This document shows positions 45,815 through 52,885 of a stretch of 64,000 nt of DNA, piece by piece. The notes beneath the pieces were generated by a model that did not search any database, was not told the origin of the DNA, and was given only the letters and a program-made list of their open reading frames with translations. A program made the translations under genes and the position numbers. Within the stretch, counting starts at the first letter, position 1; every line of letters begins with the position of its first letter. Source of the DNA: Escherichia coli (lineage in GTDB: Bacteria > Pseudomonadota > Gammaproteobacteria > Enterobacterales > Enterobacteriaceae); NCBI RefSeq assembly GCF_003991155.1, contig NZ_CP031293.1; one strand, given 5' to 3'.

Positions 45815-48292
45815 CTACATTGCCATTAATATAAACATAGCCAATTCGTCATAACGAATTCCGTAGCGTCCACCTGCTTTTTTTACAAGAATCATATTTC
45901 CTGTTTTATATTGAGAATAAATTTTCTCACCTGTATCAGGATCTGTGCTCTCTTCAGTTATCACCTCTTCATCCCATACGTCTGGCCATTCATCGTAACA
46001 CCAAAAAGCATATTGCTCAGGATTTAAACCATGCTTTCTAAGAATATCTCCTACGGTTTGAGCGCCAACTCCAAAATGATACCTTGATAACTCCAATCCT
46101 TTAAAATTAATCGACTCATTAAACCTGAACTTGCATATAATTCCCTTTATTTCCAGCGCAGCATCACGCTCTGCCTGAGTAATGTCATATATTGTTTTAA
46201 GTGTTTCATCTGATGTGCTTATAGTCCCGGATGCAGAATAAATCTGAGCCCATCTAAATGATGGTGCACCAAGAGATTTGCTGTTATCAATAATTGGTGA
46301 AAAATTACCTTTAATGGCAATATTTCCAGAGTCGCCGAATATATTAATAACTGTAGAGTCATCACCATGGTTTTTTACGCTTAAGTTTCTTGATAAAATA
46401 TTTATATCTTTGTTATACCCACTAACATTAATCCATCTTTTACCATCAATGTGATACCCGTAAATATTTCCGTTTGATTGTTCGTCAGGTGACTCTCTAA
46501 GAACAATAGCATCTACTCCAGACGACCATTGTATTTTTGTATCTGTAGGCCTCCAGTTCTTTATAATGAACGAACCATCAGTAAACTCCGTTTTTATTTG
46601 TCTATTGTCTACAAATGCGTCTCTTGGTTTAAACTCACTTGTGTTAACGCTGCTCTGAAGATCAGAAGCAAAAAATCTAAGATTTCCTGTATAACCCTGA
46701 GTCTCGGTCAGGTTATACGCAATCATAATTCCATTTTCAAACTCAGATGATGTTATTTTAACATCACGGCAATCACCAAAAATGCAATTTCCTTTATCAA
46801 ATGTTGTTTGAGCTTTGAATTTATCAAACCTTAAATTACGAACAGGGAAACCATCAACCTCTAATGCAAAGGATGCATGAAGGCCAAAGTATTCTGATGG
46901 CTTACCTGATGTATGATCAAGAGTAGTGGCTACTGTATTCTCAAAAACAGTCCCGCTAAAATTATTACCAATTGACGGAAACCTGATTACACTTATTGTA
47001 CCTTGTATTTCAGGAGAAATACCAGATAGTGTGATGTTAGTTCCATCAAATGATGCATCTGAATACGTATATACTGATTCACTGCCAGCAATTTTAAACT
47101 GTTTAACTGAAGTTATTCTCATCGACTTTTTATGTTTAAATGTCACTGAGCTTTCAGTATTACTTACAAGATCAATCTGAGGGCTATTCCTTATCGCGAT
47201 TCCTGACTGGACATAAACGTTATTAAAGTGCGTTTTTTCAGGATTTCCCTTCATTGAAAGGCTCCCGTCATTTTCTGTCAGTAGTAGTCCTTTTACCCTC
47301 CAATAGCCGACAATCTGTACGTTATCAATAACTGAATCACAGCTATCGTATACATGCAACCCTATATCCCAGTTATCACCCAATGAATAAGAATCAGGGT
47401 TATTGTATCCTTCAATACCATTTTTACTTACCATTATTCTCAGATTGCGTAACTGTGATGCCCTGTTGATACTAACAGCTACGCTCATGGCTTTTGGTGT
47501 AGCAGGAGTAACACCTACAGAATCTTCATTCGTAAACTCAGTGAACTTACAAGATATCCCTTCAACAATTTTAACCGGTCTTTCATTAGAGATGTTAAAA
47601 AAATATTTGTTTTTTTCTCCATCACCAGTAAATACAAGATGGGTTCCTTTACTCCAACTTTTTAATAATCTTTCAGGCGCTGGTCTATATGTATCCCAAT
47701 AATCAATGCCAGATCCAACCAGTGAACACCCCTCAGGAATGTTAATATTCTTCTTGATGATGCATATTCCTTCCGGAATTGTTATAACCGACCTTCCAGA
47801 GTTTAAAGCTTTAATAAAAGCATCTGAATCATCTGTTTCCCCATCTATTTTTGCTCCCCACCCTCTAACATCTCCACAATCTCTCCATCGTGCCATCTGC
47901 AACTCAGGATATTTTTTAGCGCCATCTGGATCTTCTAATTGCTGCCGTAGCTGATCGGGGTCATACTTCAGCACATTAGGAAAATAGAACTGCTGCGCAC
48001 CATATGCATCATAAACAGCCATAGAATGGCCTTGCACAGTTACAAACTTGGCTATTTGCCCGTTATATACCGGGTAACCAGCAGCGTTAATGATGATTGG
48101 TTGCGAAACAGGAACGTGAGAGCCATCTTCGTTCTCCACATAAACCTGAATCTGGTTTTCAGGATTTACAGGGTCAGTGTCAATTTTACCGATATAAATT
48201 TTGCCATTGGCAACCGCTTTAAAAGAACGTGCCATAGTGAAGAGTTGAGAAGGCATACTCACTACAACATTGGCATTTATCGAATCTGTCAT
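45815..48292 (-). CDS. Tailspike: P22 gp9-type head-binding N-domain, beta-helix depolymerase-like centre and C-terminal intramolecular-chaperone (peptidase S74-like) domain
   Basis: The N-terminus [64 protein letters not shown] matches P22 gp9. The centre has [30 protein letters not shown]. The C-terminus has [15 protein letters not shown]...[10 protein letters not shown]...[13 protein letters not shown]. Confidence 0.85.
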
Positions 48293-48391: not shown

Positions 48392-49321
48392 TCAGTAGTT
48401 ATGTACTGAAGGAGGTAATTCTTTATTCTTAAGTCTCATCCATGCGGAAAGATTCGTTGGTCCGTCTGGCTCATTGATATCAACATCTCGTGTGTGATTG
48501 ATTAAAACGTCTCTCGCCATTCCGATAACATACGAGAACTCATGACCATAGTCGTAGCATCTGCCGGAATAGTTCGATTGAATTTGTTTTAATGCCGGAT
48601 ACAGTTCGCGGAATAACGCCTGTGAGCGGTTGGCATAATCCCATAACCATACAAGGCTGTTTGCTTCTTTTGCAGAAAGCTCGTTGGTTTTCTTCTCTTG
48701 TTTGCCAATGAACTCACCTTCAAGCGGAACGCGAGCAGCAAGTGACAGTGCTTCGGTAAACTGCTCATCACTGATTTCTTTGTACGAACATCCAAAATGG
48801 GATTTCAGTGACGACCACATGGTGATCATCGCCTTCGCCTGTTTTTCTTTTGGCAGAGACTGACCGCGACTCATGACGAGTTGTTTAATGGCTTCCTGCT
48901 GTTCAGTGGTGATTTTACCCGGCAACGCCTTTTTAGCTTTGCGTGGGTTAACTACATGGCCTTTAGTCCAGTACTCGTAGAGCACATCGTCACACTCTTC
49001 CTGATACTGGATTACCTTGTCGCGGATTTCAGGGCGGACTTTGTTTGGACTGATGGTTTGCAGCCAGCCAGCAAGTTTGCGAAGTGCCAAACAAATAATC
49101 TCACGGCACTGTTCATCACCAGGAAGCTGCATTGTGATTTTCACAATGGAGGTTTTAAACCGTTGCTTTATTTTCGTAAACTGTGAAGCCCAATCCATAC
49201 CCATACCTTCAACGATAGGTTTCATTGGGGTGTACGGCTCACCGTTGTGATTGACGACATAAAGCTCTGCGCCGTGGAATGGCACGTTGATAGTAGATAC
49301 TGCTGTTGCTATACTTTTCAT
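48392..49321 (-). CDS. ant: Antirepressor (Ant-like; P22_AR N-terminal type)
   Basis: The ORF is 309 aa, lies downstream of arc in the immI region, and contains [33 protein letters not shown]. Confidence 0.75.
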
Positions 49322-49387
49322 GTCAGTTTTTCCTCAAAATTTACTGGCGATTTAAGCCCGAGCTACTCGCAATAGCTTGGGCTTTAC

Positions 49388-49534
49388 TCATTCTGGACAA
49401 ACAATTCCATCCTTAGCTACTGACTCCTTTAGTCTCCTCAATACCTCATTACTGAACGACCGATCATCCTTTTTCGCGGACTGCTCCAAAGCCTTTTCCA
49501 GCCATTCTGGCATCCTTAATGTCTTAACTTTCAT
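49388..49534 (-). CDS. arc: Arc-like ribbon-helix-helix repressor
   Basis: MKVKTLRMPEWLEKALEQSAKKDDRSFSNEVLRRLKESV is an RHH pattern. An AAGGAG RBS is present. The listed ORF start at 49600 is upstream of the likely start. Confidence 0.75.
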   Translation of the reverse strand: MKVKTLRMPEWLEKALEQSAKKDDRSFSNEVLRRLKESVAKDGIVCPE

Positions 49535-49580
49535 TTTTGCTCCTTTGCTCCTTTGTATGTGGTACGCATACATAGTATTT

Positions 49581-49609
49581 AGGTACGCATTGATAGTCAA
49601 TAGATACCT
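49581..49609. promoter_or_regulatory. Candidate immI operator: near-palindrome AGGTAcgcATTGA-TAG-TCAATagaTACCT in the arc/mnt divergent region
   Basis: It lies in the 112-bp divergent intergenic region (49535-49646). GGTACGCAT is also repeated at 49561 and 49582. Confidence 0.5.
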
Positions 49610-49646
49610 ACATATCCTGTGGTAAATAATTATTCAGGATGCGCCG

Positions 49647-49898
49647 ATGTCTGATCGTAAGTACAAAAACCCTCAAGTGAATCTGAGGCTTCCTGTAGAG
49701 ATAAAGGAACGTCTTATTGAGCTGGCTGAGGCTAATTCTCGTTCATTAAATGCTGAGATGGTAGCAGCACTTGAGGCATGGACTGAAAAAAATAAACATA
49801 TTCAAGCACTAGATATTGCAACTATAGCATCGCGGTTGATAGAGCTTGAGCATGAGGTTGAGAAGTTAAAATGTATGCATGGCAACGGTGAAAAATGA
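49647..49898 (+). CDS. mnt: Mnt-like ribbon-helix-helix repressor
   Basis: NPQVNLRLPVEIKERLIELAEANSRSLNAEMVAALEAW has the same RHH pattern as P22 Mnt, followed by a C-terminal coiled tail. Confidence 0.75.
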   Translation: MSDRKYKNPQVNLRLPVEIKERLIELAEANSRSLNAEMVAALEAWTEKNKHIQALDIATIASRLIELEHEVEKLKCMHGNGEK

Positions 49899-50209
49899 AA
49901 CGCATCGCTATTTTGTTAATATTGTTCTTCTCTACAATAGTTTGCGCCAAACAAAAATCAGATAATGGCGATCTTAAAGGCCTGCAAGAACTCATGATAA
50001 CTTCGAAATTTGCTGGCATGTGCGGCACAATCAAACAAATGGCAACATTTCAAGAATCAACAAAAATGCCTGGCGGAGATGAGTTCTTACAGCGTTTTCT
50101 GACCACAGAGCAAGCAAGACTTGGAATGAATCCACAGGAGTTTCTTGAAGCATGCCAGAAGTCAATTTCAGCTTATACCAATTATTACAATCTAACTTCT
50201 GATAAATAA
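49895..50209 (+). CDS. Small secreted protein (moron, sieA-position)
   Basis: Its ATG overlaps the mnt stop (ATGA). It has the signal peptide MKRIAILLILFFSTIVCA. I see no recognisable homology. Confidence 0.6.
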   Translation: MKRIAILLILFFSTIVCAKQKSDNGDLKGLQELMITSKFAGMCGTIKQMATFQESTKMPGGDEFLQRFLTTEQARLGMNPQEFLEACQKSISAYTNYYNLTSDK

Positions 50210-50234
50210 TAGAAAGGATTTTATAAATAACTTT

Positions 50235-50720
50235 ATGAAAAAATCACTATTAATTATCCCGCTTCTGCTGGCTGGATGCGCAAAAGTAAGTGACTACCAA
50301 GCAAGTTGCGAACAACGCTATCCAAAGCTTAGTGATATGGCTAATTGCCTTGATGCCAGCGTGAAGAACGACTCACGCATGGCATCAGCACCAACACCTA
50401 AGCTGTATGTCCTTGCTGCGAAGATGCTCGGGCAAGGTGTCGATGAAGGCAAGATAAGTGACGCACAGGCAAGACTTGAGCTTCAGAATCTTTATGTTCA
50501 ATTACAAAGCCAAGAACAAGCCCAACAAATAGCGCAAAGCCAAGCATTCCAGCAGGCTTTATTGAATTATCAGGCTGTAAACACAATGCAAGCGATCGAG
50601 CAAAAAGCGCGCCAGCCTGTTATAACTCAACCTTACCCAACACGCGTTGACACATATACAAACTGCAATTCAGGATTTGGAAACACCGTCACATGCAACA
50701 GTAGCAGCAACATTAGATAA
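50235..50720 (+). CDS. Lipoprotein, Gln-rich (moron, sieA-position)
   Basis: It has the lipobox LLAGC (Cys15) with Ala at +2. The centre is Q-rich (QSQEQAQQIAQSQAFQQALLNYQ). Confidence 0.65.
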   Translation: MKKSLLIIPLLLAGCAKVSDYQASCEQRYPKLSDMANCLDASVKNDSRMASAPTPKLYVLAAKMLGQGVDEGKISDAQARLELQNLYVQLQSQEQAQQIAQSQAFQQALLNYQAVNTMQAIEQKARQPVITQPYPTRVDTYTNCNSGFGNTVTCNSSSNIR

Positions 50721-50722
50721 AG

Positions 50723-52885
50723 CTATTCATATTCATTCATACCGCTTAACGAGGCGACAATACCAGCTCTCGACAAGCGATTGAATTCATCGCTACCAAT
50801 AGCATCGCGTATTGCTTTTACGGCGGCTTTATTTGCCATAAATCTGCGTTCCGCCGCCGCTAATGCTTCTTTACTTCCGCCAGCTCTTACTGCTTTCGTG
50901 GCTTCCTGAACTGCTTTCTCTATCGCATATCGGCCGCTACGCGTGGTGGCAATTTTAGATACAGCACCTTTTAACCCGGCGCCAACTAAAGCACCTGCGG
51001 CAGCGCCTGCAATGCCCCCTCCTGCTCCACCAACAATGGCACCTGATGTTGAGTTGGCAATTGCATTTAACACTGTTGATGTGACGTTGGATAAACCGGC
51101 ATCCAGATCGCGTAGTACATTGGCAGTTCTCCCTGTTCTTTCAATATACTGCTGAGGCTTCACTGCTGCTCTTGCAAGAGTGCCATATGCATCAGCAATT
51201 CTTCCGAGTTCTGAGGAATATCTGCTAATGGCTTTTACATTTTGTGGGGTAAGTATCCCTGCGATATGGTTAATTCCTGCTGCATCAGCTTTGCCACCAC
51301 GTACACCATGCGAGATAGCATCTTGCAACATTGATGATATAGCAGGAACACGCTCTGATTCTGGCAGCGCGCGGATCATAGAATGGAACCCAGCAGGACC
51401 ATTAAGACCTTTAGCTGACGATGATTGAAGGGATTTTACTCCATTCGTAATCAGTGCATCTGTTGCCAAATCACGCCCGAAAACAGACTCTGCACTCTCT
51501 TGTGCTGATAACCTCGCTTTAGACAGATCATTAGCTTTCTGCCAGTCATCAAGAAATCCGCCGTTTTCCGCCATTGTGCGCATATCATCAGTAATTGCCC
51601 GGCGTATTTCCCCTGCTCTCCTTGCCGCATTTGCCTCTCCGCTACGCTTATATTTTTGCTCCGCATCAGCAAATTTCGCTCTCCATGCTTTCATGCCATC
51701 AAATGTTACCCCACCTTGATTGTTTGCCTGAACAAACTGTTTCATTTCAGGAGTAAGCGGTATGCCAGCAGATCGCTCTGCCTGAATAACGGCATTACCA
51801 TTTAGCATTCTTGCTTTTTGATTTGGCATTGTTGACCGCACGTCATCCCATGCCGCGCGCTCGGCATCCTTCATCTGATCAAGATTTTGAAGAATCCTTT
51901 GTTTTATAGCCGCACTTTTTTCTGATGCCGTTCCAGATGCGGCCCCAAATTCATCAAGGTTTCGACTTAACTTTGATGATATTTCGTTAAATGCTGCCTG
52001 ATGGGCGTCCTGAACAATTCCTGGTGTTGATGCCAATGCGCCTTCGGCTTGTGCAATTCCACGACTTCCAGATCGCATTCCTGGTGTTAATGCGTTTATA
52101 TCAATTCCAGCAGACTCAGCCGCTTTTGCTACATCTTCGGACACATTAGCGGCCTGACTGGCAATTGACTGACGCCCAGCACCTGACTTTGCCATCCTGG
52201 AAACATCATTAGCAGAATTCAGTGCTGCACCACCAAGAGCCTGTGAAACCCTTGGCGCAATAACGCGCCCGACACCTGAAAGAACGCCTTGAGCACCAAT
52301 ATTGATACCACCGTTAATGGCAGCATTTTGTGCAAAGTCGCCCTCCTGATTTGCAGCATCAGCAAGAGAACCTGCAATCATGTTTCCTGCGGAACCGATA
52401 TCTCCAGCGAGCTTTGCTGGCGCTCCAGCAGCTTTTGCCGCTGTGCCAATTGGCAGGAGATACCCACCAATTGTTTCACCGGCTTGCGCATAAGGGTCTG
52501 TCGGTCGATCGACTGGACGATAGACATCATCCAAAACCTTTGGGCCACCAAGCCCCTGGCTGATTGCATTAATCAGACTTGCGCCACCCTGCAATACGTC
52601 AAATGGTATGTTTACCAGACCACGACCAGCCTGTTCTGCAATTTGCCCTGCACTTTGACCACCTGTGAGCCAATCACCAGCTTGTTGCATCAATGATGGT
52701 TCTTCTTTCTGCTGCTGTGGCGGAGGGTATGCTGCATAAAACTGATCTCTTGCTTCAGCCCATTTGTCACCAGCCTTAGGGGCAACAACCTCATCAAAAT
52801 ATTGCGCTTGAGCCTGTGCTTTCTGTTCTTCAGTTAACGCCTGATACTGTGGAGAAGCGATAACATCTTTCCATGCTTTAGCCAT
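50723..52885 (-). CDS. Ejection (internal virion) protein, gp16 position
   Basis: The ORF is 720 aa, Ala/Gly-rich, and the last of the three ejection genes. Confidence 0.75.

Follow-up and report, generated by a model that had tools for sequence, protein, structure and literature searches.

A P22-type immI switch and two independent exported-protein genes in an Escherichia coli prophage, with orf161 as a candidate stand-in for SieA

Introduction

What occupies the sieA slot of a P22-like prophage which carries no sieA, and does the occupant take over the role of SieA? To our knowledge, the contents of this slot have not been described so far in the two thirds of P22-like phages without sieA. 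The question is raised by a stretch of 64,000 nucleotides (nt) of Escherichia coli DNA (contig NZ_CP031293.1), referred to below as the window, which contains the late end of a P22-like (Lederbergvirus) prophage. At positions 49,388 to 50,722 of the window, an Arc-like and an Mnt-like repressor gene are found together with the genes of two exported proteins, orf104 and orf161. The layout of P22 is mnt, orf59a, a terminator, the promoter PsieA and sieA, which ends 22 base pairs (bp) from gene 16. The sieA gene is present in only 22 of 66 P22-like phages, always between genes 16 and 9, and its product acts by blocking the conduit formed by gp16/gp20 (Leavitt et al. 2024, PMC10883804).

Our answer, which we hold with less than even confidence, is that the locus comprises a complete immI switch and two independent lysogenic-conversion cassettes which export envelope proteins, with orf161 as the stand-in for SieA. 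The anatomy and the regulation of the locus are well supported; the function is not.

The exported proteins

The gene orf161 (50235..50720, + strand; 161 amino acids (aa)) codes for a predicted outer-membrane lipoprotein. It starts 25 nt past orf104 (49895..50209, + strand; 104 aa), which codes for a predicted secreted periplasmic protein and begins in an ATGA overlap (49895-49898) with the mnt-like gene. The stop of orf161 (50718-50720) lies 2 bp from the stop (50723-50725) of the convergent gene 16. Gene coordinates are based on the reading of the sequence and on the table of open reading frames of the window, and every coordinate in the initial annotation of the locus agrees with both.

Concerning orf161, the lipobox is LLAGC with Ala at position +2 and the centre of the protein is Gln-rich, as the initial annotation had reported. 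Among 35 homologues (alignment A1), Gly14 is at least 90% conserved and Cys15 is invariant. Based on the +2 rule, the protein would carry a lipid anchor in the outer membrane and face the periplasm. It consists of a helical N-terminal domain (N-domain, with Cys25 and Cys38), a long Gln-rich helix, a Pro-rich linker and a C-terminal Cys144-x9-Cys154 loop; the AlphaFold2 model of the N-domain has a predicted local distance difference test score (pLDDT) of about 85. Because the lipobox, both Cys pairs and the N-domain have changed little among the homologues of alignment A1, orf161 appears to be a real gene under selection. Relatives at the DNA level are either at least 98% identical or saturated. 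The whole protein (1-161 of 161) matches PHROG 6067 (2.6e-110), a family of unknown function.

The N-terminus of orf104, MKRIAILLILFFSTIVCA followed by KQK, is a standard Sec signal peptide with predicted cleavage after VCA. The signal peptides of the homologues end in a site of the A-x-A type, ANA or AAA (alignment A2). The mature protein has about 86 aa and two invariant Cys, and a nearly invariant FQESTxMPGG motif forms the loop between helices 1 and 2. AlphaFold2 models it as a three-helix bundle (pLDDT 77), and it would thus enter the periplasm as a small disulphide-bonded helical bundle. It matches PHROG 19844, also of unknown function, over its full length (1-104 of 105; 6.4e-63). The suggestion that both proteins downstream of mnt are exported is supported by the Sec signal peptide of orf104 and the lipobox of orf161, which are conserved in the homologues.

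In a profile search of 1.84 billion representative proteins, the superfamily of orf161 comprises 253 clusters at 50% identity. Most members are lipoproteins of 125-140 aa which share the N-domain and the C-terminal motif TTNC...GN...C...Y. The family of orf104 comprises 310 clusters, all of about 100-107 aa, from Gamma- and Betaproteobacteria and Campylobacterota, and includes chromosomal relatives in Sulfurimonas and Methylophaga.

Searches for a known function returned the following. Pfam and NCBIfam gave no match beyond signal-peptide noise for orf104, orf161 or 10 distant relatives of orf161, and neither family has a model in the two databases. PADLOC gave no match for the four proteins searched at E <= 1, and again only signal-peptide noise for the 10 distant relatives. 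No match to the exported proteins was found in profile searches of the PDB, or at E <= 0.001 with Foldseek against the BFVD viral models. The cluster look-up of the distant orf161 relatives returned unnamed metagenomic proteins only, and no paper was found in the literature by the accession numbers and PHROG identifiers of the two proteins.

Distribution of orf161 and orf104

For comparison we used about 130 related loci from viral contigs, species genomes and annotated phages. orf161 is found in E. coli, Salmonella, Tatumella, Providencia, Morganella and Yersinia, and also in a Proteus phage. Wherever it was detected together with gene 16 (about 98 loci), it lies directly against this gene in convergent orientation. 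The gap between the two genes ranges from -7 to 90 bp, with one outlier of 333 bp. The initial annotation had drawn attention to the lack of room for a terminator after orf161; this is not a distinctive feature of the window, as the sieA gene of P22 is arranged alike and the gaps of the relatives span the range just given.

A convergent arrangement which echoes that of orf161 and gene 16 was seen once among more distant loci, where an orf161-family lipoprotein gene (L145, 416-811) faces the gene of a 3215-aa ddrB-ParB 'polyvalent' protein (812 onward).

Upstream of orf161 the loci differ: mnt, mnt with orf59a, mnt with orf104, a lipoprotein gene on the opposite strand, or the tailspike gene alone may be found. 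In Morganella and Yersinia ruckeri, orf161 is located alone between the tailspike gene and gene 16, with neither mnt nor immI. When the window is compared with phages Gally, VSe13 and vB_EcoP-720R6, nucleotide similarity sets in a single base ahead of the orf161 ATG, and for this reason the gene appears to move as a single-gene cassette. All members seen of the phage-borne orf161 subfamily occupy the sieA slot of a P22-like prophage.

Concerning orf104, the ATGA overlap with mnt is present in 34 loci. It may be followed by orf161, by another lipoprotein gene, by orf59a or by nothing. Its distant relatives are still found after an Mnt-like gene beside an antirepressor gene, in long-tailed (non-P22) phages. 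In a lambdoid prophage of Pseudomonas chlororaphis (L138, 6001-6324), a gene of the orf104 family is flanked by the early-left operon on one side and the cI-type repressor gene on the other, and is the only gene there on its strand; this position is the usual home of rex- or sieB-type genes.

The initial annotation had treated orf104 and orf161 as a pair, and in its strict form this means one obligate two-protein exclusion module on the mnt transcript. The window and 22 related loci, among them that of E. coli O104:H4, do have the two genes side by side with a fixed gap of 25 nt. Against this, orf161 is found without orf104 in most loci, and many loci as well as non-P22 phages have orf104 but no orf161. 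Among 5426 complete E. coli genomes, 185 (3.4%) contain orf161 and 17, mostly O104:H4, contain orf104. The presence of orf161 in loci without any mnt, as well as the start of nucleotide similarity one base before its ATG, also speaks for a cassette of one gene. An obligate module is thus largely refuted by the distribution, and we regard it as very improbable. Since orf104 and orf161 assort independently across the loci compared, they appear to be independent cassettes and not a pair. The interval between gene 16 and mnt looks like a hotspot for cassettes of exported proteins.

Two side observations concern this interval. In E. coli O104:H4 2011C-3493 (L004 8100-9173; NC_018658 1596598-1597671), the mnt-orf104-orf161 block is present at 98% identity; this strain, from the German outbreak of 2011, and strains related to it carry the block in a P22-like prophage at argW/yfdC. 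Other loci contain an unrelated third lipoprotein gene, whose 139-aa product has the lipobox LLSGC and a weak match to PEGA (E = 0.004). The gene lies on the opposite strand, with mnt or orf104 on one side and orf161 or gene 16 on the other. It corresponds to GALLYPH_14 of phage Gally (L001, 3448-3867, - strand) and is also present in L003, L021, L027, L028, L030 and about 15 viral contigs.

The sieA slot

Compared with the layout of P22, orf161 takes the sieA slot and orf104 the slot of orf59a. The initial annotation had placed both exported proteins in the sieA slot; this holds for orf161, which lies against gene 16, but not for orf104. SieA itself was looked for by tblastn with two queries, P22 SieA for type A and E. 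coli HS SieA for type B; in the latter, the FxRYPxEAxxFNK motif takes the form FNRYPGEARKFNK. No SieA of type A or B was found in any of 138 loci or in the 64-kb window, except in the sources of the two queries, P22 and E. coli HS. Thus none of the loci bearing orf161 has a type A or type B SieA, and the two are mutually exclusive in this sample. Since sieA is found in only a third of the P22-like phages surveyed, as cited above, and no type A or B copy in the orf161 loci, orf161 looks like an alternative filler of the slot.

orf161 and SieA have several traits in common. Both genes adjoin gene 16 in convergent orientation in P22-like prophages, and the same enterobacterial genera carry them; both are expressed from the prophage, and the sizes of the proteins are close (161 and 164 aa, respectively). 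There is also a clear difference in the type of protein. SieA is a multi-pass inner-membrane protein with the cytoplasmic FxRYPxEAxxFNK motif, whereas orf161 is a lipoprotein with no transmembrane segment. No hydrophobic window of 19 residues is present in mature orf161 or mature orf104, compared with three in each of SieA types A and B, and orf161 gave no alignment to P22 SieA at E <= 100. The initial annotation was therefore right that orf161 does not resemble SieA. Exclusion is proven for SieA, whereas orf161 is only a candidate.

Transcription in the lysogen

The initial annotation had proposed that the downstream genes are expressed from the lysogen. For orf161 this agrees with data from E. 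coli LF82, whose Gally prophage encodes a protein (GALLYPH_13) 98.8% identical to orf161. In the LF82 RNA-seq data from LB medium, GALLYPH_13 has 70 normalised counts compared with a prophage median of 15.6 and with 13.7 for gene 16 (PMC9928086, S1/S4 tables), and it is transcribed while the flanking virion genes are silent (PMC9928086). GALLYPH_13 is also up in cell-culture medium and in macrophages, with a log2 fold change of +2.55 in the latter (q = 4.7e-27), and the third lipoprotein gene, GALLYPH_14, is expressed from the prophage in LF82 with a log2 rise of 3.84 in macrophages (PMC9928086).

Concerning the transcript, no terminator-like site was found on the + strand from mnt to the stop of orf161, the first one being located within gene 16, at a depth of 213 nt. 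Read-through from Pmnt would agree with this absence and with the ATGA coupling of mnt and orf104. Because no such site precedes gene 16, the Pmnt transcript of the window probably carries orf104 and orf161 as well. The proposal that the mnt transcript continues through orf104 into orf161 is thus supported for the window, but it does not extend to orf161 in general: dependence on Pmnt is ruled out by the loci of Morganella and Yersinia which contain orf161 without mnt. A TATAAA sequence at 50222-50227 was considered as part of an internal promoter of orf161 and rejected, as the start site would fall on the ATG.

According to a second explanation, the genes of the exported proteins are host-fitness genes of lysogenic conversion. 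One or both proteins would act in envelope physiology (for example stress tolerance, interaction with serum or macrophages, or resistance to toxins acting in the periplasm) and exclude no phage, similarly to Bor of phage lambda. In macrophages and cell-culture medium, expression rises 6- to 40-fold for the homologue of orf161, the lipoprotein gene next to it and mnt (PMC9928086). Both families also have chromosomal members outside phages, and the orf104 relative beside cI in the Pseudomonas prophage occupies a classic site of lysogen-expressed genes, whatever their function. On the other side, deletion of the whole Gally prophage left the survival of LF82 in macrophages unchanged (PMC9928086), and the phage-borne orf161 subfamily keeps to the sieA slot of P22-like prophages, whereas a fitness gene would be expected to spread to other types of phages. 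Because of the chromosomal relatives and the induction under stress and in macrophages, we consider a role in the fitness of the host envelope possible and almost as likely as exclusion.

Functional interpretation

Exclusion of incoming P22-like phages by orf161 is our best single guess, although a tentative one. Four observations lead to it: orf161 keeps to the sieA slot, orf161 and SieA (types A and B) exclude each other in our sample, the phage-borne subfamily is confined to P22-like prophages, and the gene of a nearly identical protein is transcribed in the prophage state. From its predicted position, orf161 would hinder DNA delivery by incoming P22-like phages from the outer-membrane or periplasmic side. 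Possible targets are the conduit of the ejection proteins gp7, gp20 and gp16, or a secondary receptor in the outer membrane. A more far-reaching form of this proposal is that orf161 founds a new class of exclusion proteins, an outer-membrane lipoprotein which replaces SieA in many sieA-less P22-like phages and blocks the passage of DNA through the conduit at the outer membrane or in the periplasm, and that orf104 is a second, independent protective factor in the periplasm. We think this form rather unlikely.

Several points weigh against exclusion. We know of no exclusion phenotype on record for orf161, and the mutual exclusion covers types A and B of the three SieA types. The restriction of orf161 to P22-like prophages could reflect recombination among relatives and not function. 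The two distant relatives of orf161 which could be placed are found in housekeeping chromosomal settings, near uvrC/pgsA and near kdsB/thrC, which points to a general envelope role, and the chromosomal relatives of both orf104 and orf161 weaken a phage-specific reading. The unchanged macrophage survival of LF82 after deletion of the Gally prophage counts here as well. Also, the LF82 authors did not class GALLYPH_13 as a moron, since it reached 4.5-fold over background compared with a cut-off of 5-fold (PMC9928086).

Among the known exclusion proteins, Cor (phages phi80 and N15) and Llp (phage T5) block FhuA and are made to protect the infected or lysogenic cell. Like orf161, both are small lipoproteins encoded by phages, with disulphide bonds and a signal for sorting to the outer membrane. 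They differ from it in that there is no homology and that orf161 is about twice as long, with the long Gln-rich helix; moreover, the carriers of orf161 are O-antigen-binding podophages and not FhuA-dependent siphophages. The only match to the Cor family (PHROG 1119) was to the signal peptide, residues 1-29, with E = 0.078, and no homology to Cor or Llp was found. Ltp of Streptococcus phage TP-J34 is a lipoprotein which blocks DNA injection by binding the tape measure protein. It offers an analogy of mechanism, in which a membrane-tethered, extracytoplasmic helical domain would meet the incoming proteins of DNA delivery. Ltp differs from orf161 in its Gram-positive host and its fold family (helix-turn-helix repeats), and no match in sequence or structure was found between them. 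Neither homology nor fold links orf104 or orf161 to Cor, Llp or a known exclusion protein in our searches; what orf161 would have in common with Ltp or Llp is the working principle, not the protein family.

For orf104 a separate proposal can be made, which is compatible with either explanation of orf161 as it concerns orf104 only. The protein would be a periplasmic inhibitor or immunity protein, whose FQESTxMPGG loop blocks an enzyme entering the periplasm from outside, for example the peptidoglycan hydrolase of a virion, or a contact-dependent or type VI secretion effector. The model is Spackle of phage T4, a periplasmic inhibitor of the gp5 tail lysozyme, which like orf104 is a small helical periplasmic protein of about 100 aa with a Sec signal peptide. 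The size, the Sec export, the predicted disulphide bond, the helical fold and the nearly invariant loop of orf104 would suit this role. Members of the family are often found at lysogen-expressed sites of prophages (next to cI, or downstream of mnt-like genes, the latter also in non-P22 phages), and residues 64-246 of the resident gp16 match a transglycosylase family of PHROG (phrog_29864, 3e-26). No conserved gene of a partner enzyme was seen adjoining orf104, which argues against it. We regard the inhibitor or immunity role as a reasonable but weak idea, and as improbable.

The immI switch

The switch upstream of the exported genes includes two ribbon-helix-helix (RHH) repressors. The arc-like gene (49388..49534, - strand; 48 aa) has its ATG at 49534 and its stop at 49388-49390, and the mnt-like gene (49647..49898, + strand) codes for 83 aa. 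Both proteins match the Pfam family Arc (PF03869; 1.6e-5 for the Arc-like and 3.1e-10 for the Mnt-like protein). The Arc-like protein is 31% identical to P22 Arc over 39 aa, and the Mnt-like protein is 47% identical to P22 Mnt over the RHH region; it also matches PHROG 795 (9e-24), under which P22 Mnt is annotated in the P22 record. The antirepressor gene ant (48392..49321, - strand; 309 aa) matches P22_AR_N (7e-45) and P22_AR_C (5e-30) of Pfam and the anti-repressor Ant family PHROG 245 (3.5e-97).

In E. coli TW10573 the RefSeq annotation of arc is a 41-aa 'hypothetical protein' (L005, 6089-6214), which starts at Met8 and is without the DNA-binding beta-strand. The 48-aa start is the better call, because it keeps this N-terminal beta-strand and is preceded by AGGAG 5 nt upstream.

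The 112-bp region between arc and mnt (49535-49646) contains the repeated 9-mer and the 29-bp near-palindrome reported in the initial annotation. The 9-mer, GGTACGCAT, is found at 49561-49569 and 49582-49590, and each copy begins one unit of a 21-nt direct repeat (76% identity). The near-palindrome (49581..49609) has 10 of 14 complementary pairs, spans both -35 hexamers and is part of the 18-nt arms of repeat I1. We also found a dyad of 19 bp, TGTATGTGGTACGCATACA (49554..49572), absent from the initial annotation; it has 7 of 9 complementary pairs and is located at the -10 and the start site of the Pant-like promoter. In 5000 mononucleotide shuffles of the spacer, a direct repeat of a 9-mer was reached in 2.1%, the 29-bp dyad in 3.5%, the 19-bp dyad in 13% and all three in 0.02%, so that one by one these elements are only modestly unlikely by chance.

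Conservation of the spacer was assessed in 12 distinct sequence variants from 37 loci. Both copies of GGTACGCAT and the 29-bp dyad are invariant, and a few single positions vary elsewhere in the block; the 19-bp dyad is nearly invariant, with a single substitution in two variants (L017 and L028). The core of the spacer is conserved even where the adjacent Arc is 58-60% identical. An 8-bp tandem duplication, TTTGCTCC x2 (49536..49551; repeat D2), duplicates the Shine-Dalgarno sequence of arc. It is present only in the window and absent from all 36 related spacers (104-105 bp) among the 37 regions compared.

Two putative promoters which match the consensus overlap in this region at their -35 elements: a Pant-like promoter (49572..49600, - strand; TTGACT-17-TACTAT) and a Pmnt-like promoter (49590..49618, + strand; TTGATA-17-TATCCT). 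The face-to-face overlap is the same as the one annotated in P22. Judging by position in the P22 layout, the 19-bp dyad would be the counterpart of Omnt and the 29-bp near-palindrome that of Oarc. In the lysogen, Mnt would repress Pant and maintain Pmnt.

Inside the 5' end of ant, a Psar-like promoter is predicted in antisense orientation (49287..49315, + strand; TTGATA-17-TATACT, 10 of 12 matches, TG before the -10), at the same relative position as the annotated Psar of P22. It would direct a sar-like antisense RNA (49322..49388, + strand), absent from the initial annotation, which covers the spacer between arc and ant and the ribosome-binding site of ant. The RNA matches the full Rfam model RF00262 (1-68; E = 0.0037) with 29.3 bits, below the gathering score of 43, and folds into the expected two hairpins (-25.7 kcal/mol, z = -4.4).

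As the RHH regulators, Ant, the dyads and predicted promoter pair of the spacer and the putative sar-like RNA are all present, the sequence indicates a complete P22-type immI unit: ant, sar-like RNA, arc, overlapping divergent promoters with two dyads, and mnt. The switch is therefore fuller than first described. Gene order and orientation between gene 16 and gene 9 are identical to those of P22 immI, and the two also share the Arc family of the regulators, an Ant with both P22_AR domains and, by prediction, a sar-like RNA in the arc-ant spacer and overlapping divergent promoters. They differ in the low identity of Arc and Mnt over the RHH part, in the sar match, which is below the gathering score, and in the operator sequences, which are unlike; also, the dyads of the window are 32 bp apart, whereas the centres of the P22 operators are about 25 bp apart. 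P22 has a terminator after orf59a, whereas no terminator-like site follows the gene after mnt in the window, and the 8-bp duplication at the arc ribosome-binding site is an addition of the window alone.

Surroundings of the locus

The order of the prophage genes is gp20, gp16, the immI region with the exported-protein genes, Ant and the tailspike gene (45815-48292). Gene 16 (50723..52885, - strand), convergent with orf161, codes for an ejection protein of 720 aa, compared with 609 aa in P22. It matches the DNA transfer protein family PHROG 770 (1.5e-230) and no Pfam family, and its homologue in strain TW10573 is named P22-gp16 family protein in RefSeq. The E. coli chromosome (dacD, sbmC, yeeA) begins about 80 bp past the tailspike gene, with the prophage boundary at about 45735 and no integrase at the tailspike end. 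tRNA-Asn genes are found in the window at 17266-17341 (- strand) and 19090-19165 (+ strand). TW10573 contains a nearly identical block of immI and exported-protein genes in a degraded prophage at a different site, where intS is found past the tailspike end and gene 16 is directly followed by a truncated recT pseudogene.

Significance

orf161 is one recurrent occupant of the sieA slot, found in the fraction of complete E. coli genomes given above, in phages Gally, VSe13 and vB_EcoP-720R6, in a Proteus phage and in the prophage of the 2011 O104:H4 outbreak. On present evidence it appears to be a sound and testable lead on an uncharacterised, fairly common prophage lipoprotein, and not a demonstrated new system. 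Should orf161 exclude phages, it would provide a second handle on the trans-envelope channel of short-tailed phages, from the side of the outer membrane, and would be relevant to the choice of therapeutic or typing phages against such lysogens. Should it not, it would still be an abundant envelope lipoprotein which is expressed from the prophage and induced in macrophages.

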